Below, one piece after another: positions 1,848-38,909 of a stretch of 39,390 bases of DNA; within the stretch, counting starts at the first letter, position 1, and each line of letters begins with the position of its first letter. The DNA is from Escherichia phage HF4s. Below the pieces are notes generated by a model, which was not told the DNA's origin, searched no databases, and saw nothing but the letters and a program-made list of their open reading frames with translations. The position numbers and the translations under genes are program-made. Where the stretch lies: sequence record MT833387.1; one strand, written 5' to 3'.

Positions 1848-3973
1848 ATGGCAGAGACATTAGAGAAAAACATGAGCGGATCATGCTCAGGTTTGACCGC
1901 GCCTATTCTCCACAGAAGGAAGTGCGCGAAAAGTGCATTGAAGCTACGAGGTTTGCTCGTGTCCCCGGAGGTCAATGGGAAGGAGCAACGGCGGCTGGAA
2001 CTAAGCTTGATGAGCAGTTAGAGAAGTATCCTAAGTTTGAAATCAATAAGGTAGCAACTGAACTTAACCGCATCATTGCAGAATACCGCAATAACAGAAT
2101 CACTGTTAAGTTTCGTCCTGGTGACAGAGAGGCAAGCGAAGAGTTAGCCAATAAATTAAATGGTCTGTTCCGTGCTGACTACGAAGAAACTGATGGCGGT
2201 GAGGCTTGTGATAATGCATTTGACGACGCTGCTACTGGTGGTTTCGGTTGCTTCCGTTTGACGTCGATGCTGGTCAATGAATACGACCCCATGGACGATC
2301 GTCAGCGTATTGCTATTGAACCAATATACGACCCGTCGCGCTCTGTGTGGTTTGACCCTGACGCTAAGAAGTACGACAAATCTGACGCGTTGTGGGCGTT
2401 CTGCATGTATTCGTTGTCACCTGAAAAATATGAGGCTGAATACGGAAAGAAACCTCCTGCTTCTCTGGATGTAACGTCTATGACCAGTTGGGAATATGAC
2501 TGGTTTGATGAAGATGTTATTTACATAGCGAAGTATTACGAAGTTCGTAAAGAGTCTGTTGACGTCATCAGTTATCGACATCCAATCACTGGAGAGATTG
2601 CAACATACGACAGTGATCAGGTTGAAGATATTGAAGATGAACTGGCAATAGCTGGATTTCATGAAGTGGCAAGGCGCTCAGTGAAGCGCCGTCGTGTGTA
2701 TGTATCCGTAGTGGATGGTGATGGTTTCCTTGAGAAACCTCGACGTATTCCTGGTGAACATATCCCCCTCATCCCGGTTTATGGAAAACGCTGGTTCATT
2801 GATGACATTGAGCGTGTCGAAGGGCACATTGCAAAAGCAATGGATCCACAACGTTTGTACAACCTTCAGGTTTCAATGCTGGCTGATACTGCAGCGCAAG
2901 ACCCCGGTCAGATCCCTATAGTTGGCATGGAGCAAATTCGTGGACTTGAGAAGCACTGGGAGGCTCGCAACAAGAAACGCCCAGCGTTCTTGCCGTTGCG
3001 CGAAGTGAGAGATAAATCTGGCAACATTATCGCTGGAGCTACCCCTGCAGGATATACACAGCCTGCGGTTATGAATCAGGCATTGGCTGCATTACTACAG
3101 CAAACCAGTGCAGATATTCAGGAGGTTACAGGCGGCAGTCAGGCCATGCAGCAGATGCCAAGTAATATTGCTCAGGAAACGGTTAACAACTTGATGAACA
3201 GAGCAGATATGGCTTCGTTTATCTATCTGGACAATATGGCGAAAAGTCTTAAACGCGCTGGTGAAGTATGGCTGTCAATGGCGCGTGAAGTGTACGGTTC
3301 AGAACGTGAAGTGCGCATCGTTAACGAAGATGGAAGTGATGATATCGCTGTCCTGAGCGCACAGGTTGTTGACAGGCAAACAGGGGCTGTTGTTGCGTTA
3401 AATGACCTTTCTGTCGGTCGATACGATGTGACGGTTGATGTTGGACCAAGCTACACAGCACGACGTGATGCAACGGTTTCTGTACTGACAAATGTCCTTA
3501 GCTCTATGCTTCCAACAGACCCAATGCGCCCGGCAATTCAGGGTATTATTCTGGACAATATCGATGGCGAAGGCCTTGATGACTTCAAAGAGTACAACCG
3601 AAACCAACTGCTGATATCTGGTATTGCAAAACCACGCAATGAGAAAGAGAAGCAGATTGTTCAACAGGCGCAAATGGCAGCACAAAGCCAGCCAAATCCT
3701 GAAATGGTTCTCGCTCAGGCGCAAATGGTAGCAGCGCAGGCAGAAGCGCAAAAAGCAACTAACGAAACTGCTCAAACTCAAATCAAAGCATTTACTGCCC
3801 AGCAGGATGCGATGGAGAGTCAGGCAAACACTGTCTATAAACTGGCTCAAGCCAGAAACATCGATGACAAAGCAGTGATGGAGGCAATACGCCTTCTGAA
3901 AGATGTCGCCGAGTCACAACAACAGCAATTCCAGTCACCACCACAGTCACCGGCAGACTTAATGCCGAGTTAA
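1848..3973 (+). CDS. portal protein (P22 gp1 / Sf6 gp3 type), N-terminus disrupted by apparent frameshift
   Basis: Longest intact ORF is 1883..3973 (696 aa), with an N-terminal region aligning to P22 portal. An ATG at 1848 with MAETLEKN lies 3 nt after the terL stop in another frame; restoring one A in the A5 run 1866-1870 gives MAETLEKKHERIMLRFD, co-linear with the P22 portal N-terminus. Confidence 0.85.
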
Positions 3974-3986
3974 CCAGGAGTAATCA

Positions 3987-4870
3987 ATGGAAAACGAACT
4001 GATCATCGACGGTCAGGTTATTGACCTGTCTGAAACACAGGAAAATGCAGAAGAAACCATCATCCAAACAGAGTCACAGCCTGAGAATGAAAGCCAGGAT
4101 GACAACGGAAAAGAGATGGCAACTGATCCTGAAAAACCGAAGAGACACCAGAAGATTACGCCTTGCGTATTGGTGATGAAGAAATTCAGCTTAACGCTGA
4201 CGATGATGATCACATTGACGGGCAACCTGCACCGCAATGGGTGAAAGATCTTCGCAAAGGCTTCAAAGAAACACAGAAAGAAAACCGTGAGTTGCGCCGC
4301 CAGCTTGAGGAAGCATTAGCCAAGCCTGCGGAACATCAGCAACCACAACCAGACGCTATTCCACCAAAACCGACTCTTGAGTCGTGTGATTATGACGAAC
4401 AGGCGTTTGAACAGGCATTGACTGATTGGCATGAGAAAAAAGGCCGTGTCGAACAGCAGCAGCAACAAAAACTACGTCAGCAACAGGAATACCAACAGCG
4501 TTTCCAGCAAAGGGTAGAAGCGCATAAACAACGGGCAGCCAAACTTCCTGTGAAAGATTATCAGGAAATGGAGGCCATTGTTCTTAGTGAGCTACCACCA
4601 ATTCAGCAGGAAATCATCATTCACTGTGCAGACGAAGGCTCTGAACTACTCGCCTATGGCTTAGGTAAGAGCCAGCAATTACGCCAGCGTGTAGCCGCTG
4701 AGACAGATCCAATTCGCGCAGCATTCCTCTTGGGGCAGATTAGCAAACAGGTAAGCCTTGCTCCAAAACCAAAGAAAGCCATCAAGCCAGAGCCGGAAGT
4801 ACGTGGTGGCGGTGCTGATGCGAAACAAGACGAATTCAACAAATTATGCCCCGGCGCAAAAATCGAATAA
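3987..4870 (+). CDS. scaffolding protein (P22 gp8-like), split by apparent frameshift
   Basis: Two overlapping ORFs (3987..4244 and 4163..4870 with a TTG start) between portal and coat; acidic N-terminus and charged helical C-terminus typical of scaffold; frame change at the A5 run 4132-4136. Confidence 0.7.
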
Positions 4871-13666: not shown

Positions 13667-16042
13667 ATGTCAGATATCACAACAAATGCTGTTGTCGTAA
13701 ACCCACGCCCTATTTTCACCGACTCAAGAACGTTCCGAGCAGTTGCTAATGGTAAAATCTACGTAGGGAAAATAGACACCGACCCAACCATTCCATCAAA
13801 CCAGATCCCGGTCTACCTTGAAAATGAGAATGGTGACAAGGTTCAAATCCCTCAACCACTCATCGTAAATAACGCTGGCAAGATTGTTTACAACGGACAG
13901 TTAGCAAAGGTCGTAACGGTAAACGGTTATAGCATTGCCGTATATGACGCCTACGGTTCTCAAGTTGACTATATCCCAAACGTCCTTGGGTACGATCCAG
14001 ATAGCTTCAAAGACCAATTAGCTGGCCCAGACGGAGCATCGTTAATTGGTTATGGCAATGGAACGGTTGCAGATAAGCTTGATGAGCTTAAGACGCCATT
14101 TGACTTCGGCGCTAAAGGGGATGGAGTAACTGACGACACGCTGGCATTACAAGCATACATTGATGGTGTAGATGGCGACATTGACTTATACGGAAAAACT
14201 TATCTAGTTAGCAAAAACCCAGCACTTGCAACTACCTATCCAACGGAACCTGATTTAGCCAACAATGGATACAACTTCTGCCCGTGTCTCGCTATAGTTA
14301 ATAAAACCAATAAGAGAATCTTTAACGGCACACTCGTCAGCAAGGTATTTGGTCAGTCTGTTCTGTCTATCATCAACAGCACAGGAATAGAAGTTAACCT
14401 TAAAATTGTTGGGTTTGGTAAGTTTCCTGCCATTGACCACCCTAGTGGATATGCGGAAAAAGGATATTCAACTGGGGGCTACAATACGATTGATGGAGGC
14501 CTTCTTCTTGGCCCAAACAATTCAATCCCCACCTCCAGCTATACGCTAGGAAAGTACAATGGGGTATCAGGTCAGTTCCCAATATACGATGCCTCATGTA
14601 ACCCTACAGGTGGATATCAGTCTACTTGGGGTGCATTTGGAGGGGGTTACATTGGTAGCTATGCATGTGCTGTAACTATTCAGCGGGCATGCAAAAATAT
14701 AACACTACGCGGCTGTGAGATATACGGATTCAATGAAGCTGCTGTCGGCATTGGCATAAGATTTATTGTCAGCTCCACTGGATACACCGACTATACAACC
14801 GATGCTGATGTTCCTCGTGGGGTTAACGTCCTGGATTGCTATCTGCATGACTGCTACACAGCAGGAGTGCACGTATGCTCAGGGTACAATATTGTTTATG
14901 ACTCGTTAAGAGTGGAGAACATTGGTCATCCCAATGCAGATGACGCAACAGACACAGACATTAACCCAGGATACGGAGTAACAACATCAAGATTTAGAAA
15001 CATCCGAAACATAACTTGCGTGAATAGTTTCTTCCTAAATTGCAAACGCAAATCTATCGATTTCCATGCAGGCGGGCAATTGATAGTTGATGGAAACTAT
15101 TGCATGAGAACAGGTGTCAATGGCATATATTTTGAGGCGGGATTTGGTTGGGATAATGGATACGAGCCATATAACGTCATTGTTACTAACAATTACATTG
15201 TTACAAGAGCACTAGGCGTGGTTGGCACTGGTGGGATTTCCATGGTAGGAAATGGCTCCGCCCTAGCAGAGTCATACCCGTATCCTTTTTTGAAGTGTAA
15301 CAACAACTATATTGAGGTAAGGGCTGCCAACGGGGTGGGTATTAATAATGGTTACAACAATAACGATTACCACTATGAGGACATAAACATATGTGATAAT
15401 ACGGTTGTATACAAATCTGACACCTACACCCCGGGTCAGTTTGTTGCTATTCGTTGCAACCTAAATACTCCTTCATCTACTACTCTTCCGAAGCAAAACA
15501 TCAAGCTCTGTCGTAACAGCATAAAAATCCTGACAACGCTTGGTAATTACGCATTCGGAACTCCAATAACCATCGGTGGAACTCCTGCTGTTCTTATTGC
15601 AACCGATAATACAGTGGATATGGGGAACGTAGCTAATGGATCAAGTGCATGGTATGCGACAATTACCCCCAACCCAATAACTGACTATTACTTCTCAGGT
15701 AATAAAATACTTAACTACATTAAACCAGCCACTTTAAGACAAGCGGAAGTTATGTTCTATGACAACATAGGATTTACTGCCACAGGAACTTATGTTTCGA
15801 TAGCTATGCAGTGGTTTAGAGGGATATGGACGGTTGATGCAGCTGGTCTCGATTCACTTGCTGGCGCTAAGTCAGTTACCCTTGCATCTGACGGGGTCGG
15901 GATCACTCAGGGAACCCCGATACAACATGGGTCAATATCAGCTGCAATGACAATAAGTTCATCTAATATTGGGTTTACTACCACCGCCGGAACGACATGC
16001 TACGTTGGCGTAAAAATGAAACCTGTTGGTATTAAAGCATAA
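13667..16042 (+). CDS. tailspike protein: P22-type head-binding domain fused to a pectate-lyase-like beta-helix depolymerase domain
   Basis: 791 aa; first ~115 aa closely match the P22 gp9 head-binding domain (NPRPIFT...[16 protein letters not shown]...YDPD); remainder is unrelated to the P22 endorhamnosidase and carries the [13 protein letters not shown] motif of pectate-lyase-fold depolymerases. Confidence 0.9.
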
Positions 16043-16046
16043 ATAT

Positions 16047-16070
16047 GGCGGGGATACCCCCGCCTATTTT
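16047..16070. terminator. bidirectional intrinsic terminator between convergent tailspike and gtrC
   Basis: GGCGGGG-ata-CCCCGCC hairpin flanked by A/T runs on both sides. Confidence 0.6.
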
Positions 16071-17301
16071 ATTTCTGGTATATGTAATCGATACCGTAAT
16101 ATTCTCCAGCAGCTTTAGGGTTATGGAACTTATCAAGGCGATCCCCTAACCTGAAAGTGTTCTTCTCATTATATTTTGGCACTGTAATCACCTTTTCTCC
16201 AGAATGAATGCCTTTCTCTATCATTGCCACTCTGTCCAAGTATTGATTGTTTATATCTATGTAATATGATGACAACATGAAATAATCAACAAGAAATACA
16301 GGCAATAAAGTTAAAAGTAATACTGGCGTATAAAATTTTGAGATTTTCCCCTCAAATGAAGAAATTATCAGCGACAGACTTGCGAGAAGCAAAATAAAAC
16401 CAGTGGTCATAGCCCTTTGCGGATAGTAAGGTGCTGCAAACATAATTACATTCGAGCCGATTGCAAGGGCAAAGAATATAAAGGAGTATTGCATTTTTGT
16501 TTTATCATGCAGCATTGACAATGACGACAAAATAAACATTGATGTCATGATTACGATTATTAGTGCCCCATACTGCACAAGCATTTCAGGCATCCGGTCA
16601 AGCATGTGAAAGTAGATTCTTTCAGTTAAATCTTTTGAATACCATGAACTGAATGAAGGGCCGGAAGCCCTTGCTGCATTCCCAGGTGCCAAAAGCATGG
16701 AGGCAGAACCAACAAGTACAAATGGCAATAGAGCCAAATCTTTTACAGCGAAACGCTTGTTTATGAATGCCAATATACTATGACAAACGATAAATCCCAC
16801 AGAAAGCACCGCCACTGACTCATTCGATGCGCCAGCTAAAAATCCTAACGCAGCTTGTGGTATGGTAAATTTTACACCTTTCATTAAATTATTGCACAAG
16901 AGCATTAGAAGTAATGAAGGTATTAGATAATTAACAAACCCTACAACCCAAAAGGTATTTTGGCCTATGGAAGGGTTAAAAATAAAGAATGAAACCGCTA
17001 TTAAGCAGAATATAGCAGCCCCACCCTGAGCCATTCTCCTAATAACATGCATCAGAAGTATGCTAACTGTCGCGGTAACAGTTGCACTCATCGCATTAGA
17101 TTTAGCAAAAAGGATCATCGGACTAATAAAGTCTACTATGTATCTGCCGCTCCACCCCATATACATTGCAATATGCTTGTCAATGCTAAATCCAAGATTG
17201 CAGAATGCATAATCATCAGATTGCATTGGTGAAAGATAGCTTATTGCCCAAACCATCCCAAAGAAGGCAATATATGCGATAGGGTCTAAATACTTTTTCA
17301 T
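16069..17301 (-). CDS. gtrC: serotype-specific O-antigen glucosyltransferase, GtrC-type polytopic membrane protein
   Basis: 410-aa multi-pass membrane protein immediately downstream of gtrA-gtrB in the same orientation; visibly AT-rich relative to neighbours. Confidence 0.7.
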
Positions 17302-18214
17302 TTTCTTCCCTTCAGCACGTAACGAGGCCTATTCTTAACTTCTACGTAAATCCTGCCAATGTACTCACCGAGCACACCAATTCCTATTAGCTGAATACCG
17401 CCAAGAAAAAGAATAGAAACAAGGAGGGATGGATACCCACGAACCGCATTACCAAAGGCCAGGGTGTCTATAATCATCCACGCGCCGTACATAAACGCAG
17501 CACCGGCAACGAACAGGCCAATATAAGTCCACATGCGCAGTGGGAATGTTGAGAAGCTTGTGATCCCCTCAAGCGCCAGGTTCCATAGCTTCCAGCCGTT
17601 GAATTTGGTGCTTCCAGCCACTCGTTCTGCTCTGGCATACTCCACAACATCGGTACGGCCGCCAACCCAACTCAATACGCCTTTCATGAACAGGTTGCGC
17701 TCAGGCATGAGCTTAATGTTTTCTACCACCTCGCGAGACATTAGCCTGAAATCTCCAACATTTTCCTCGATCTGCGGGTTGCTGATTTTGTTATGCAGCT
17801 TATAGAACCACTCGGCGGTTTTCCTCTTCAGTCTGCCATCAGTTGAGCGGTCAGATCGTTTAGCAAGCACCATGTCAGCACCTGCTAGCCACTTTTCAAT
17901 CAGATGAGGAATGACCTCAATCGGGTCTTGCAGGTCAACATCAATAGGAATAACGGCATCACCTGTTGCATGGTCTAACCCTGCAAACAATGCTGGTTCT
18001 TTACCAAAGTTTCGTGTAAATGACAGCGGAACAACTAGAGGATCTGAAACGGACAGAGCGTTAATGATTGACTCCGTAGCGTCTTTGCTACCATCATTTA
18101 TAAAAACAATTTCCACTTCATATGGCTTCAACTCTTCGAATTCACGTACCGTTTTATAAAAATAGGTATCGCTTCCTCTTCGTTGAAGACAGGAACGACC
18201 AGAGATATCTTCAT
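17298..18214 (-). pseudogene. gtrB: bactoprenol glucosyltransferase GtrB, frameshifted after codon ~19
   Basis: ATG overlapping the gtrA stop encodes the canonical [19 protein letters not shown] and then terminates; the rest of GtrB ([10 protein letters not shown]...) continues in another frame; break at the T5 run (plus-strand A5, 18158-18162). Confidence 0.85.
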
Positions 18215-18573
18215 TTCGCATCCCTAAAGACAATGAACTTTGAATAGACGAAACCGCACACTAGGCTGATGGCGGAGAAGGTGACAAGAGTGACAATTGG
18301 AGGAAGTGCACATTTATCGGCAGCCCATCCAACAGTAGCACTCAGTGTTCCCATGAATCCTACATATAACATGTAGCGCATCGTTGTAGTCGAAGCTTTG
18401 AATGTGAATTTTGCATTCGCGAAGAAGCTAAAGCTCACAGCCACAACGAAACCTGCGAAGTTTGCAAGAGCCTGATTGGTGTGCGCGGCATAGATACATA
18501 CACCAAAAACCACCCAATGTATAAGTGTGTTCAGCACACCAATCGAGGTGTACTTTGCAAATAGCTTTAACAT
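18211..18573 (-). CDS. gtrA: GtrA flippase-like small membrane protein
   Basis: 120-aa hydrophobic protein with stop overlapping the gtrB start (ATGA); typical gtrA size and arrangement. Confidence 0.85.
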
Positions 18574-21172: not shown

Positions 21173-21379
21173 CACTTCACCTCCTGCGCCGTTTTGATGA
21201 TTGCTGCCAGACAATTCTTGCAAGGAACAAGCAGCGTTCCCTGCTCAATGCTCAATAGCGCATGCTGAGCATCCTGAAAAGCCATTCGAATGACCCTGGC
21301 CGATGACCGCACCATGTCTCAATCTCGTGCTTAGGGAGTTTAACTCCCTCTCGATAGTCATATTTGATGATGTGCTTTC

Positions 21380-23954: not shown

Positions 23955-24248
23955 TCAGTCATTACTGATAGCGCCATAGCGTGAGCGGTAATTACGCAGG
24001 CGCGGGTCAATTTCAGGGAAGTGGGTATATGTGGCTTTGCGGAATGGTCGGATTGATGTCTGGTAAATTCGCTCGCGTTCTTCTTTCTCTGCAAGCCATA
24101 TACAATGGCGAAATTCCTTTTCCTCTTTCGTTTCCTGCGGTAGCGACATTATCCGATCGTAGTTTTTTCTGAATTTATCCAGCACCTCCGATACGGAATT
24201 GCCGGAACAGCGGCGCGCGTCATCCGCACCATACAGAGGCGCTGGCAT
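23955..24248 (-). CDS. hypothetical protein (Abc-position, possible anti-RecBCD)
   Basis: 97-aa ORF downstream of the erf-ssb pair; function inferred from position only. Confidence 0.4.
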
Positions 24249-24271: not shown

Positions 24272-24654
24272 TTAGAAGGGAATTGAATCGTCGTATTCAG
24301 GATGATTTTGATGATTGCTACTTTGTTGCTGTTGGCTGTTTCCTGAAGTTGCAAATCCAATCTTTGCATTCAGTAATTCAAGAGTGATTGATTGACCATT
24401 TTGCCCCTGATAAACATCAACCCTGATGTTTTCTCCGGTAATTTCCACAATGCCACCTTCAACAAGAACACTACGGTAGTAATCCGCTTGCGCTCCTGGC
24501 TTGGCAAATACAACGGCGCTGTAGTTTGTCCATTCTTTCTTTTTGTCTGGCGATCGTAATACTGAACGCCAGCACGGATGTTGAATCCGATATTTTCCCC
24601 GGCCTGAAACTCTCTTGCGGGCTTGTTTAGTCTTACAGTAATCGAATGTGCCAT
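24272..24654 (-). pseudogene. ssb: single-stranded DNA-binding protein, frameshifted
   Basis: N-terminal ~40 codons in one frame; the other frame continues as an OB-fold-like sequence ending in the SSB acidic tail (EYDDSIPF-stop); break at the A5 run (plus-strand T5, 24540-24544). Confidence 0.75.
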
Positions 24655-25259
24655 TAAGCAGCCGCTCCTTCTAATTCGTCTCGTCTGATGTTGTAAACGC
24701 CCTGCGCTTTGTGCTGCTCCGGTGTGCCTTCGAGCATCTTCCACGCTTTGGCGAACGCCTGTTTAAGCTCTTCCACGGTGTTTTTCTGCAATGCTGCGTC
24801 AGTGAATGCTTTTAGAACCTGTTCAGGTGTAGGTGATGGTTTTGACTGCTTTGCTGCTGCGTTCTGCTGATGTTTATGCTCGTCTGTATCTGCATCTTTC
24901 GCATCATCAATGCCGAACAAACCATTGAGGCAATATTTGCGTGCATAAGAGCTTGTAGCTCCCGTAACTTGTGCAGAATCCATTCCTTTCTTGCTTTCTT
25001 CCTCTCGTGCAAGAGCGGTTGCCGTATGACTGTTTTCGCCATCGGTAATAGTTGCCGTGGCTTTCACGTAATACCGATCACCAATCAACACAACTTCATC
25101 GCTGATTGATAAAAACAGACCATTCAGTAACGGCTTAACGCCTTCAAGAATATCTTCGCAGCTTCTGTATTTATATTTACCGAATGAGTTGTACTGATTC
25201 TTTGGCGCGTTCAGATTCTCCTGAATAGCTGCCAGTCTTGCGTAAAATTCTTTGCTCAT
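24654..25259 (-). CDS. erf: Erf single-strand annealing recombinase
   Basis: N-terminal ~120 aa closely match P22 Erf (MSKEFYARLA.IQE.LNAPKNQYNSFGKYKYRSCEDILEGVKPLL...). Confidence 0.9.
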   Translation of the reverse strand: MSKEFYARLAAIQENLNAPKNQYNSFGKYKYRSCEDILEGVKPLLNGLFLSISDEVVLIGDRYYVKATATITDGENSHTATALAREEESKKGMDSAQVTGATSSYARKYCLNGLFGIDDAKDADTDEHKHQQNAAAKQSKPSPTPEQVLKAFTDAALQKNTVEELKQAFAKAWKMLEGTPEQHKAQGVYNIRRDELEGAAA

Positions 25260-25348
25260 ATGATTGTTCTCAGAATGGACATGGCCCAAGGAAATAACGC
25301 TGATTTAATACTTCAGTCTTTGCCGCATTTAAAAATACGCGAACACCT

Positions 25349-25534
25349 TCACGATCTCCCTTCTGGCGATACATTAACGCCTGCTGCGTGTACATGCGTC
25401 TCTGTAACTTGCTCTCCTTCACTGTGGTTGCAAGTGACATGAATATCTCCTTCGTTACCGATTAATTCTTTCATCTGACGAATGAATTCTTCGTCTGACC
25501 AGTTATCTGTAAAACTCATTTCCTGCGATACCAC
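25349..25534 (-). CDS. hypothetical small protein (arf position)
   Basis: 61-aa acidic ORF between kil and erf. Confidence 0.4.
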   Translation of the reverse strand: MVSQEMSFTDNWSDEEFIRQMKELIGNEGDIHVTCNHSEGEQVTETHVHAAGVNVSPEGRS

Positions 25535-28096: not shown

Positions 28097-28464
28097 TTAG
28101 TCAGCGAAGGTTAAGACGAGAATTACCTTAATGATGTCTGCTACAACAGACACGGCCATAGATAAACCAAAGACAATCCAAGCCATAGAGATGTCTTCAC
28201 TACCATCGTATAGGGTTCCGTAATCACTGGTGTAAGGCGTAAATGTCGCGCCTTGATACAATAGGTATAAGCTTGATCCATAGAGGATAAATGCAGATAT
28301 CCCTTGTATTGCTATGATCACTAGAATCATGAAACGAGCTGATCTATGCGCCCAAGCCTGGCTTATTTTTCTGATAGAGATTTCGCAATAAAAGCATGCG
28401 CTAAGCCGTAAATTGTCGAGATTGCCAACATCCCAAAAAAGCTTGCTATAGCGGTTCCAACCAT
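28097..28464 (-). CDS. small multi-pass membrane protein in the rexAB position, split by apparent frameshift
   Basis: 33-aa hydrophobic ORF (AAGGGG RBS, 17 nt after the cI stop) and 77-aa two-TM ORF (28097..28330) are separated by an A5 run; adding one A fuses them into one ~122-aa protein with 3-4 predicted TM helices. Confidence 0.6.
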
Positions 28465-28481
28465 AATCGCCCCTTGCGTGA

Positions 28482-29198
28482 TCAAACCAGCCTCAGTTTT
28501 GTCTCAATTGCAACGCCTATAATCTTGCAGTTTCCATTGATTGGCACGAGAGGCCATGCAGGATTAAGTCCCTTGAGGTATTTATTTCCGCCGTCGATTA
28601 TCAGCTTCTTGAATGTTGCTTCGTTAGAGTCAGAAAGTTTTGCTATGACCAAGCTGCCGTTGATCGCCTCCCTTCCGGTATCGAAAAGAACGAATGTTCC
28701 CTCTGGAATGCTTAACCCAACCGGTGCCGTCATTGAATCACCTTCCACTTTAAGCCAGAACGCATTACCTTGAATATGCGCGTCAGACTCAAGCCAAACA
28801 TCTATGTCTTTAATGGTGTATGGTTCGCATGCTTCACACCACGAGCCAGCCTGGATACTGCTTAACACCGGATACCTCTTTCCTGCTCTGTATTCCCCTG
28901 CATACCTTACGTTGGCATCGCTCTTAAGGCTTTCTGCCTGTTCTGCAACCTTGGCAGCAATTGACTGGCTAAAATCAGCAATTGAGACTTGCAACAGTCG
29001 TGCAAAACCAGATGCAACCTCAACGTTTAGCGCGTTTCTGCCATTAAGATAATGCCCTACCGCTCCTTGGGTGATACCCAGTTCATCAGCGATTGAGTAT
29101 TGGGTTATTCCCAATTCTTTCTTTTTTGACTCATACAAAGCCTTAAGCCGCTTAGCGTCTTCCAGCTGTTCTGTCGTCAGTGATTTTTTATTTTCCAT
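28482..29198 (-). CDS. cI: CI-type repressor (HTH plus LexA-like S24 autoprotease domain)
   Basis: 238 aa; aligns along its length with lambda CI, including the Ala-Gly cleavage region and Ser/Lys dyad context. Confidence 0.92.
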   Translation of the reverse strand: MENKKSLTTEQLEDAKRLKALYESKKKELGITQYSIADELGITQGAVGHYLNGRNALNVEVASGFARLLQVSIADFSQSIAAKVAEQAESLKSDANVRYAGEYRAGKRYPVLSSIQAGSWCEACEPYTIKDIDVWLESDAHIQGNAFWLKVEGDSMTAPVGLSIPEGTFVLFDTGREAINGSLVIAKLSDSNEATFKKLIIDGGNKYLKGLNPAWPLVPINGNCKIIGVAIETKLRLV

Positions 29199-30201: not shown

Positions 30202-31149
30202 ATGAGCAATACAGCAAAAATCTACGATTTCAGCGCCGCACACGAGCGCAGGAGCAACAGGATGGAGAACCAGAAAACTGGTTACATTCCGTTGTACCGG
30301 AGCATTCTGAAACAGTCATGGGCGAAAGATGTTTATCTTCGCACCCTGTGGGAAAACCTTCTCCTGAATGCCGCCAGAAAGCCATACAAAGCGAATTTCA
30401 AAGGTCATGAATGGCATCTGCAACCCGGTCAACTGGTTGTGACAGCAGCTGATTTAGGTCTTCAGTTATGCGACAGACATGGCAAGCCAGCAAGCCGTGA
30501 TCAGGTTGAGCGGATGCTTCAGGTTTTTGTGAAAGAGGGGATGATCTCCATTGATGGAGAGAAGCAAAAAGGTCGTGTGATCACCATCACAAATTACCAT
30601 GAATATGCTCAAAAAATGGACAATTTACCCGCACATGAAGCCGCACAAACAACCGCACATGATGCCGCACATGACGAAGCCAGTAATGGCGCGGATTTCA
30701 GCGCACATGCCGCACATGAAAGCGCACATGAAGCCGCACAAATAACCGCACATCATGAACAAGAAGGTATTAACAAGAATATAAATAATACCCCCCTACC
30801 CCCCAATGGGGGAGGCGATGGACAGGTTAAACCTGAACGTCGCAAGGCAGAACGAATCGACTACGAATCCTTCCTGAACGCCTACAACACCGAAGTCGGT
30901 GACAGACTGCCACACGCTGTTGCGGTCAACGAGAAACGCAAACGCCGCCTGAAGAAAATCATCCCGCAACTGAAAACGCCAAACGTGGACGGTTTCAGAG
31001 CGTATGTCAGGGCGTTTGTGCATCAAGCCAAGCCGTTTTACTTCGGAGACAACGACACGGGCTGGACGGCTGATTTTGATTACCTGCTGAGAGAAGACTC
31101 GTTAACGGGAGTTCGGGAAGGGAAGTTTGCAGACAGGGGGATTGCATGA
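30202..31149 (+). CDS. replication initiator (O-like) with internal origin iterons
   Basis: 315 aa; HTH-like N-terminal domain, central His/Ala-rich repeat encoded by DNA iterons, conserved C-terminal domain; coupled to the helicase gene. Confidence 0.8.
30627..30810 (+). repeat. origin of replication: ~7 iterons (GCACATGA core) plus A/T-rich segment
   Basis: Direct repeats CCGCACATGA(A/C/T) at 10-25 bp spacing inside the initiator gene, followed by an A/T-rich stretch and C6-tacc-C6-aat-G5. Confidence 0.7.
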
Positions 31150-32564
31150 GACAGGATATCGAAGCGAGCGTTATCGGTGGCCTGCTGATTGGTGGATTAA
31201 CTCCAACCGCCAGCGACGTTCTGGCAACGCTGGAGCCGGAAGCGTTTTCAATTCCGCTCTACCGGAAAGCCTTCGAGGTTATCCGCAAGCAGGCGAGAAA
31301 CAGAAACCTAATCGACGCGCTGATGGTTGCCGAGGCGTGCGGAGAGGAGCATTTCACGTCAATCCTGATGACCAGTAAGAACTGCCCGAGTGCCGCAAAC
31401 CTGAAGGGATATGCCGGAATGGTCGCGGATAACTATCACCGCCGTCTGGTGCTGGAAATCATGGATGAAATGCGTGAACCAATTCAGAGCGGAACCATCG
31501 ACGCATCGAGTCAGGCGATGGACGAGCTCGTAAAGCGTCTTTCAGCCATCAGAAAGCCCCGTGACGAGGTTAAACCTGTACGGTTAGGGGAAATCATCAC
31601 TGACTACACTGACACGCTTGACAGGCGTCTGAGGAACGGAGAGGAATCAGATACCCTGAAGACCGGAATCGAAGAACTTGACGCTATCACCGGAGGGATG
31701 AACGCAGAAGACCTGGTGATTATCGCCGCTCGTCCTGGTATGGGGAAAACCGAACTGGCTCTGAAGGTTGCCGAAGGCGTGGCAAGCCGCGTTATTCCTG
31801 GTTCTGACGTCCGGCGCGGGGTATTGATTTTCTCAATGGAAATGAGCGCATTGCAGATTGCAGAGCGAAGCATTGCCAACGCCGGGAGGATGTCGGTTAG
31901 CGTACTGCGAAATCCTGCATCGATGGATGACGAAGGCTGGGCGCGTGTTGCTAACGGCATGAGTCAGCTTGCGGATTTGGATGTATGGGTAGTCGATGCA
32001 TCGCGGTTATCGGTCGAAGAAATACGCTCAATCGCAGAACGGCACAAACAGGAAAATCCAAACCTGTCACTCATCATGGCGGATTATCTTGGCCTGATTG
32101 AGAAGCCGAAAGCAGACCGCAACGACCTCGCAATTGCTCACATCTCCGGAAGCCTGAAGGCGATGGCGAAAGACCTGAAAACGCCTGTTATCTCCCTGAG
32201 TCAGCTTTCGCGCGATGTTGAGAAGCGACCAAACAAACGCCCGACAAACGCAGATTTGCGTGATTCAGGAAGCATTGAACAGGACGCAGACTCAATCATC
32301 ATGCTCTATCGGGAAGCGGTATATGACGAGAACAGTAGCGCCGCGCCATTTGCTGAAATCATCGTGACGAAAAACCGTTTTGGCTCACTTGGTACGGTTT
32401 ACCAGCGGTTCTGTAACGGACACTTTGTTGCATGTGACCAGGATGAAGCCAGACAGATTGCACAGCATCAAATGCGCCTGCTGCGCGTGGCAGACGATAT
32501 GCACAAGGGGCGGACGTATGACCATCATACATCAGACGGGACGTATGACCATCTACATCACTGA
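31146..32564 (+). CDS. replicative DNA helicase, DnaB family (P22 gp12-like)
   Basis: 472 aa; Walker [10 protein letters not shown] and DnaB C-terminal motifs. Confidence 0.9.
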
Positions 32565-32574
32565 GCTAATAACA

Positions 32575-32601
32575 GGGGCTATTTACACAGTAGCCCTTTT
32601 T
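32575..32601 (+). terminator. intrinsic terminator (tR2-like)
   Basis: GGGCTA-9 nt loop-TAGCCC followed by TTTTT, directly after the helicase stop. Confidence 0.65.
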
Positions 32602-38663: not shown

Positions 38664-38909
38664 CCATTACAAAGCCTATCTACTGGTGGGCTTGATAATG
38701 AAACCAGAATTTATTCTTGGCAACCAGTTACGGCAGTACAGCGAAACAACCCAAGCCAGTAAGTGGGGAAATAACACTGGCAGCCACTGAAAGATGAACC
38801 TCCTGCCTTATGGCAAAAAGATTCTTTGTGGTGGCGGACTGATGGAAAGACATCTGTTATTGCAGAGACCATTCAATGAGTGGTCTCGACAATGGCTTAT
38901 ACCCTGCAC

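Follow-up and report, generated by a model that had tools for sequence, protein, structure and literature searches.

The window, that is, the whole stretch of 39,390 nucleotides analysed here (Escherichia phage HF4s, MT833387.1), is a P22-like podovirus mosaic of the Sf6/HK620 kind that begins at the small-terminase gene. No near-identical sister genome was found: even for the best matches among phages, coverage did not exceed 71% of either half, with ~97% identity. On the minus strand, three consecutive genes (erf, an SSB-like gene and abc2, the third gene of the module) lie in the arrangement listed in Table 1. The erf gene comprises 606 nt and matches HK022_41 and the erf gene of HK97 in length and position. 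Its TAA stop codon (24656–24654) and the ATG of the SSB-like gene (24654–24652) have one base in common (GCTTAATGGCAC, TAATG), while abc2 starts 23 nt past the SSB-like stop codon and has its own AAGGA Shine-Dalgarno sequence.

As recorded, the SSB-like gene is distributed over two reading frames. The frame that opens at the ATG translates as MAHSITVRLNKPAREFQAGENIGFNIRAGVQYYDRQTK, departs from the conserved frame at CAGACAAAAAGAAAG, where the A5 run is located, and then continues as unrelated sequence to a stop codon at 24370–24372. The −1 frame reads KKEWTNYSAVVFAKPGAQADYYRSV...NHPEYDDSIPF, or equally ...KKEWTNYSAVVFAKPGAQADYYRSVLVEGGIVEITGENIRVDVYQGQNGQSITLELLNAKIGFATSGNSQQQQSSNHQNHPEYDDSIPF up to its stop codon at 24272–24274. 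The context of the frame switch on the minus strand is CAGAC-AAAAA-GAAAG. A preliminary description had reported a TAATG stop/start overlap between erf and a downstream ORF, a second frame ending with the SSB acidic tail DDSIPF and a split at a 5-nt homopolymer, and all of these features were found as described, the homopolymer being an A5 run where relatives carry A6.

Table 1 Features of the erf/SSB-like/abc2 locus and shortened A/T runs elsewhere in the window.
Feature	Position	Strand	Description
erf	24654..25259	−	201 aa from the ATG at 25259; Pfam PF04404 (ERF), E = 2.5e-44
SSB-like gene, assigned by sequence to the HK97 gp40 / HK022 gp40 family ('SSB-1b')	24272..24654	−	Two frames as recorded
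A5 run (T5 on the plus strand)	24540..24544	−	A6 in relatives; sole site of frame change; codons Lys38–Lys40 of the intact protein
Codons for the C-terminal tip DDSIPF	24275..24292	−	SSB-type acidic tip, from translation
abc2 (anti-RecBCD protein 2)	23955..24248	−	97 aa; Pfam PF11043 (Anti-RecBCD_p2), E = 5.6e-63, residues 1–97 of 97
A run in the portal gene	1866–1870	+	A5 vs A6 in Sf6, Gally and 683R2; codons 7–8 frameshifted
A run in the scaffolding-protein gene (3987–4870)	4132–4136	+	A5 vs A6 in relatives including Sf6
A run	21277–21280		A4 vs A5 in 2 relatives; no gene effect identified
T run in a predicted membrane-protein gene (~28097–28485)	28366–28370	− (gene)	T5 vs T6 in 9/9 relatives
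T run in a ninA/gp56-like small gene after the helicase gene	32597–32601	+	T5 vs T6 in 8/8 relatives
A run in an unannotated stretch	38815–38819		A5 vs A6 in 6 annotated relatives; no gene effect identified

Addition of one A to the run yielded a translation of 127 aa that is identical to HK022_40 at 127 of 127 positions, and the two-frame arrangement is therefore not a product of chance. The single cause of the split is an A5 run where relatives carry A6. In an alignment of the coding region with HK022 and PDP110P2, the window differed in length only at the A run, which is A6 in both of these and in HK97, so that the gene measures 383 nt in the window and 384 nt in relatives. Megablast of the region returned matches in 133 phage records and 911 E. 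coli genomes, and the full-length ones were 1 base longer than the query. At the DNA level, the locus is 98.9% identical to HK022 and 95.8% identical to HK97; the repaired protein is >90% identical to HK97 gp40 and 98% identical to the largest family cluster (P0001). Like HK022 gp40 and HK97 gp40, the window gene is coupled to erf by TAATG and flanked by erf and abc2 within the early-left recombination module, in the same order as in HK022, HK97, CUS-3 and HK544, but it has one base fewer in the A6 run, which breaks the single uninterrupted ORF of ~125–134 aa typical of the family. By these similarities, the gene is best classed as a member of the already known HK97 gp40 / HK022 gp40 family. 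The predicted structure of HK97 gp40 resembles bacterial SSBs, and the protein was named SSB-1b (Genome Res 2025, PMC12315714); the homologue in HK75/HK446 is Gp31 (2026 OLD preprint).

The prototype record of the family itself lacks the SSB-type tip. As deposited, HK97 gp40 (AF069529.1; locus L002, 1568–1957 on the minus strand) has one base inserted close to its 3′ end and terminates in ...YDDSNPILI, in contrast to the DDSIPF of the window gene. E. coli strain 81 carries the HK97 allele minus this extra 3′ base.

We compared the repaired protein with known SSBs at the levels of profile, sequence and fold. A Pfam scan gave no SSB match (PF00436) at E ≤ 0.01, and TIGR00621 in the NCBIfam scan reached 16.4 bits, below its cut-off of 53.95. 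Across the family, PF00436 was touched by only 6 of 37 members, with a best E of 0.0038. In the PDB, the profile search yielded a non-significant SSB match (E = 0.94), and sequence searches gave marginal SSB matches only. Because the curated HMMs alone could not establish SSB membership, the assignment had to draw on PHROGs, pairwise BLASTP and fold comparison. The repaired protein matched PHROG 44 (phage single strand DNA binding proteins) over residues 2–127 (E = 1.8e-28, 101 bits), and BLASTP against the canonical SSB of Sf6 (gp27) aligned residues 31–127, including the tail, with ~31% identity over 97 residues (E = 1e-5).

The alignment of the 37 family members revealed a conserved domain of ~100 aa followed by a Q/P-rich linker that varies from ~10 to >100 residues and, in most members, by a tip of the form D(D/E)xIPF or PPF. 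Six aromatic residues (F16, F24, Y33, Y45, F50 and Y60) are invariant and W42 is nearly so, as would be expected if these side chains stack on bases. An AlphaFold2 model built from this alignment (pLDDT 85.6, pTM 0.71) adopts an OB layout of strands, a helix at residues 55–63 and further strands, followed by a disordered tail in which residues 108–118 have a pLDDT of <50. The predicted fold, a five-stranded barrel whose strands 3 and 4 are separated by a helix, is nearest to SSB structures: the best 50 PDB matches in Foldseek were all bacterial SSB, PriB or mitochondrial SSB, with 10–20% identity to the solved SSBs. The disordered linker leads to an acidic tip of the IPF/PPF kind (...NHPEYDDSIPF). 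The SSB-like gene thus most likely encodes a divergent SSB in which a predicted N-terminal OB domain of ~100 aa is joined to an acidic tip by a short, disordered linker rich in Q, and this protein would bind ssDNA.

The OB fold, the disordered Q/P/G-rich linker and the ...DD(S/D)IPF tip are shared with canonical SSBs, including Sf6 gp27, the IME10 SSB ('SSB-1') and E. coli SSB, which ends in DDDIPF (PMC5928155). Unlike these, the window protein (127 aa in total) does not reach the SSB thresholds of Pfam and TIGRFAM, and its linker is shorter. The preliminary reading of the second-frame ORF as an SSB is therefore supported by PHROG 44, the OB-fold model and the tip, albeit for a divergent family that had already been described. 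The check that it had proposed, HMM and OB-fold searches with the repaired translation, gave a divided answer: PHROG 44 and the OB-fold model with its SSB and PriB matches were positive, whereas Pfam and TIGR00621 remained below their cut-offs.

The erf/SSB-like/abc2 arrangement is a known and widespread lambdoid recombination module. The order of erf, this gene family and abc2 was found in HK97, HK022, CUS-3 and HK544, the arrangement also occurs in Sf101, and a 91-nt probe from the SSB-like gene matched 577 of 5426 complete E. coli genomes. Canonical SSB genes of P22-like phages occupy the same slot downstream of erf and upstream of abc2: Sf6 has erf (gene 28), ssb (gene 27) and abc2 (gene 25), and IME10 has erf-ssb. 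An SSB, an annealing protein and an anti-RecBCD protein are standard components of lambdoid Rec modules (PMC12315714). The combination of Erf and SSB, which had been singled out as notable, is thus commonplace, given the erf-ssb-abc2 order of Sf6 and the same gene in HK97, HK022, CUS-3 and HK544.

The statement that the gene stands in place of P22 abc1 holds for position but not for sequence. The window gene shares the slot between erf and abc2 with P22 Abc1, a recombination accessory, and HK022_40 is annotated as "hypothetical protein, likely analog of P22 Abc1". Sequence similarity was not detectable, however, when the Abc1-like protein of phage Gally (annotated 'similar to P22gp35_Abc1') was used as a stand-in for P22 Abc1 (BLASTP E = 0.28), and homology to Abc1 was rejected. 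The 'abc1 slot' of the P22-like module also holds a phage SSB in HK620, namely HkaK (SSB-HK620, DUF669; 'SSB-2'), whose last six residues, NDYPPF, resemble the tip of the host SSB as DDSIPF does in the window protein. HkaK belongs to another fold family and has Sak4, a RecA-like protein, as its partner in place of Erf; SSB-2 of the HK620 type is not a homologue of bacterial SSB (PMC12315714).

Directly upstream of erf, a small ORF at 25270–25440 on the minus strand is the positional homologue of HK97 gp42 and of Gp33 in HK75/HK446. Gp33 alone is reported to trigger the P2 OLD defence (2026 OLD preprint). A one-base polymorphism at 25315 within this ORF sets the window apart from 77 of 118 relatives.

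The layout of the locus suggests how the intact gene may function. Translation of the SSB-like gene would be coupled to that of erf through TAATG, and the protein could coat ssDNA at phage DNA ends or at replication forks once Abc2 has modified RecBCD. The DDSIPF tip would then pass the ssDNA to Erf, recruit host SSB-interacting proteins, or both, and such a handover would promote single-strand annealing in a manner analogous to HK620 SSB and Sak4. [quoted passage not shown] By analogy, the SSB-like protein may interact with Erf, and the HK620 SSB/Sak4 pair is the best experimental model of how the window gene probably works. A different role, in which the protein is not a working ssDNA-binding protein but an Abc1-like accessory or an 'SSB-tip decoy' whose OB domain is merely a scaffold and whose DDSIPF tip titrates or redirects ExoI, RecQ, RecO and PriA, is rather unlikely: the nearest structures are SSB and PriB, which bind ssDNA, the aromatic residues listed above are invariant or nearly so in the family, the sequence is unlike that of the Abc1-like protein, and canonical SSBs fill the same slot in Sf6 and IME10. 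The HK97 gp40 / SSB-1b family is a reasonable candidate for better Erf-based recombineering.

The A5 allele at 24540–24544 is very rare. The run was A6 in 124 of the 126 fetched loci, in 45/45 matching phage records and in 575/577 E. coli genomes. A 35-mer with A5 was absent from IMG/VR, against at least 120 matches there for the A6 form, and from the GTDB representative genomes. A 41-mer that seeds only on A5 was found in 0 phage records and in 2 of 5426 complete E. coli genomes, those of ET151 (NZ_CP100996.1) and strain 81 (NZ_CP088131.1); these are the two exceptions among the fetched loci (L124 and L125). Both copies are annotated by PGAP as a "frameshifted" pseudogene, their flanking haplotypes differ, and ET151 has the allele at two places. 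The presence of the same A5 allele on two complete E. coli chromosomes that are independent and differ in flanking haplotype indicates that the run changes in real or in recorded sequences, and its occurrence in these strains could reflect either recurrent slippage or recurrent miscalling at the run.

A run-aware indel scan of the window against 131 fetched loci, in which indels were keyed to the whole homopolymer run, uncovered seven private one-base deletions, all in A/T runs, including the site in the SSB-like gene. At each of the seven sites, all aligned relatives were one base longer, with the exception of the two A5-bearing E. coli loci at 24540–24544, and the same scan found no homopolymer insertions in the window. 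Five of the seven deletions break genes (portal, scaffold, SSB-like, membrane protein and ninA-like). Addition of one A to the portal gene restored the exact N-terminus of Sf6 (MAETLEKKHERIML...), the regained stretch, MAETLEKKHERIMLRFDRAY, being identical to that of Sf6. The scaffold gene is split into ORFs at 3987–4244 and 4163–4870, and one added A restored the full 294-aa protein. The membrane-protein gene, located downstream of the cI-like repressor, is recorded as ORFs of 40 and 77 aa that were joined by an added base into one ORF of ~130 aa, and the ninA-like ORF was likewise made continuous by one base. None of the broken ORFs of the window contained nonsense substitutions, IS elements or larger deletions, and one added base brought them to full length. 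In contrast, a control scan of Sf6, CUS-3, Gally, 683R2, HK544 and IME10 gave 0 private homopolymer deletions and one insertion. Since 25 A6/T6 runs and one A7 run are retained in the window, about 1 in 5 of its long A/T runs is short, and the loss is partial and not systematic.

The DnaB-like helicase gene (31146–32564, plus strand) exhibits compensating one-base differences at 32458 (TT vs TTT) and 32527 (an extra A), which place ~23 C-terminal codons in another frame than in most relatives. This pair at the 3′ end may represent either a genuine variant or a further two errors.

The recurrence of seven like deletions in A/T runs, in ORFs that are otherwise intact and with two essential virion genes among them, is characteristic of homopolymer under-calling rather than of natural decay. 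The A5 run at 24540–24544 is thus most likely a homopolymer sequencing or assembly artefact in the record, and the real phage most likely encodes an intact protein identical to HK022 gp40. A reading of the split as a notable biological feature of the locus is accordingly not supported; its cause belongs to a set of seven private A/T-run deletions, two of which fall in the essential portal and scaffold genes.

It is unlikely that the deletion is a real mutation, in a decaying or defective prophage whose SSB-like, portal, scaffold and other genes were inactivated by replication slippage at A/T runs. Such runs are natural slippage hot spots, and their loss in the window is only partial; the window contains an integrase gene and gtr-like lysogenic conversion genes, and can therefore exist as a prophage; and the identical A5 allele lies on two complete E. 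coli chromosomes in different haplotypes, in both cases within a gene called as a pseudogene. Against this, each of the seven private indels is the loss of a single base from an A/T run, the broken ORFs are otherwise intact and attain full length with one added base, and the six related phage genomes of the control scan contain no private homopolymer deletion. In addition, the record shares its starting point, the small-terminase gene, with curated P22-like phage genomes, which suggests that it was derived from virions, and a virion is impossible without portal and scaffold proteins.

It is very improbable that the A6 run is a slippage-prone contingency site at which A5 is a real and recurrent allele, in the window and in two unrelated E. 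coli prophages, so that the SSB-like protein is switched off or made as a trickle through −1 slippage before AGA. If this were true, the site could tune Erf-dependent recombination or help the phage to evade a host defence that senses phage SSB. That the split is functional, with the level of the SSB-like protein set by programmed −1 ribosomal frameshifting or by an on/off switch based on slippage, is scarcely credible. In its favour, a −1 slip at ACA-AAA-AGA would let the P-site tRNA-Lys pair again with AAA and restore the wild-type QTKKKEW, the AGA codon is rare in E. coli and decoded slowly, and the A5 allele recurs in three records. Against it, the gene is a plain single ORF with A6 in the IMG/VR contigs (at least 120), phage records and E. 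coli genomes counted above, A AAA AGA does not have the tandem-slippery form X XXY YYZ and only its P-site codon can re-pair, and the same kind of deletion strikes unrelated genes of the window. A programmed −1 frameshift was rejected on the absence of a tandem slippery heptamer and on the lack of conservation of the two-frame arrangement, which excludes it as a property of the family.

The biological weight of the observation is small: the module is widespread, and a proposal that its middle gene is a divergent SSB had been published before. Its practical use lies in quality control: 'pseudogene' or 'frameshift' calls in the window should be distrusted until it is resequenced.

Elsewhere in the window, positions 13667–18573 contain a tailspike gene (791 aa) and, on the minus strand, a gtrA/gtrB/gtr(type)-like O-antigen glucosylation cluster (120, 311 and 410 aa). 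For this region, neither the phage nor the E. coli genome collection contained a close relative; its best matches were Enterobacter phages at ~82% identity, with partial matches of 92–97% to E. coli yfdG/yfdH, and the host serotype specificity may be unusual.
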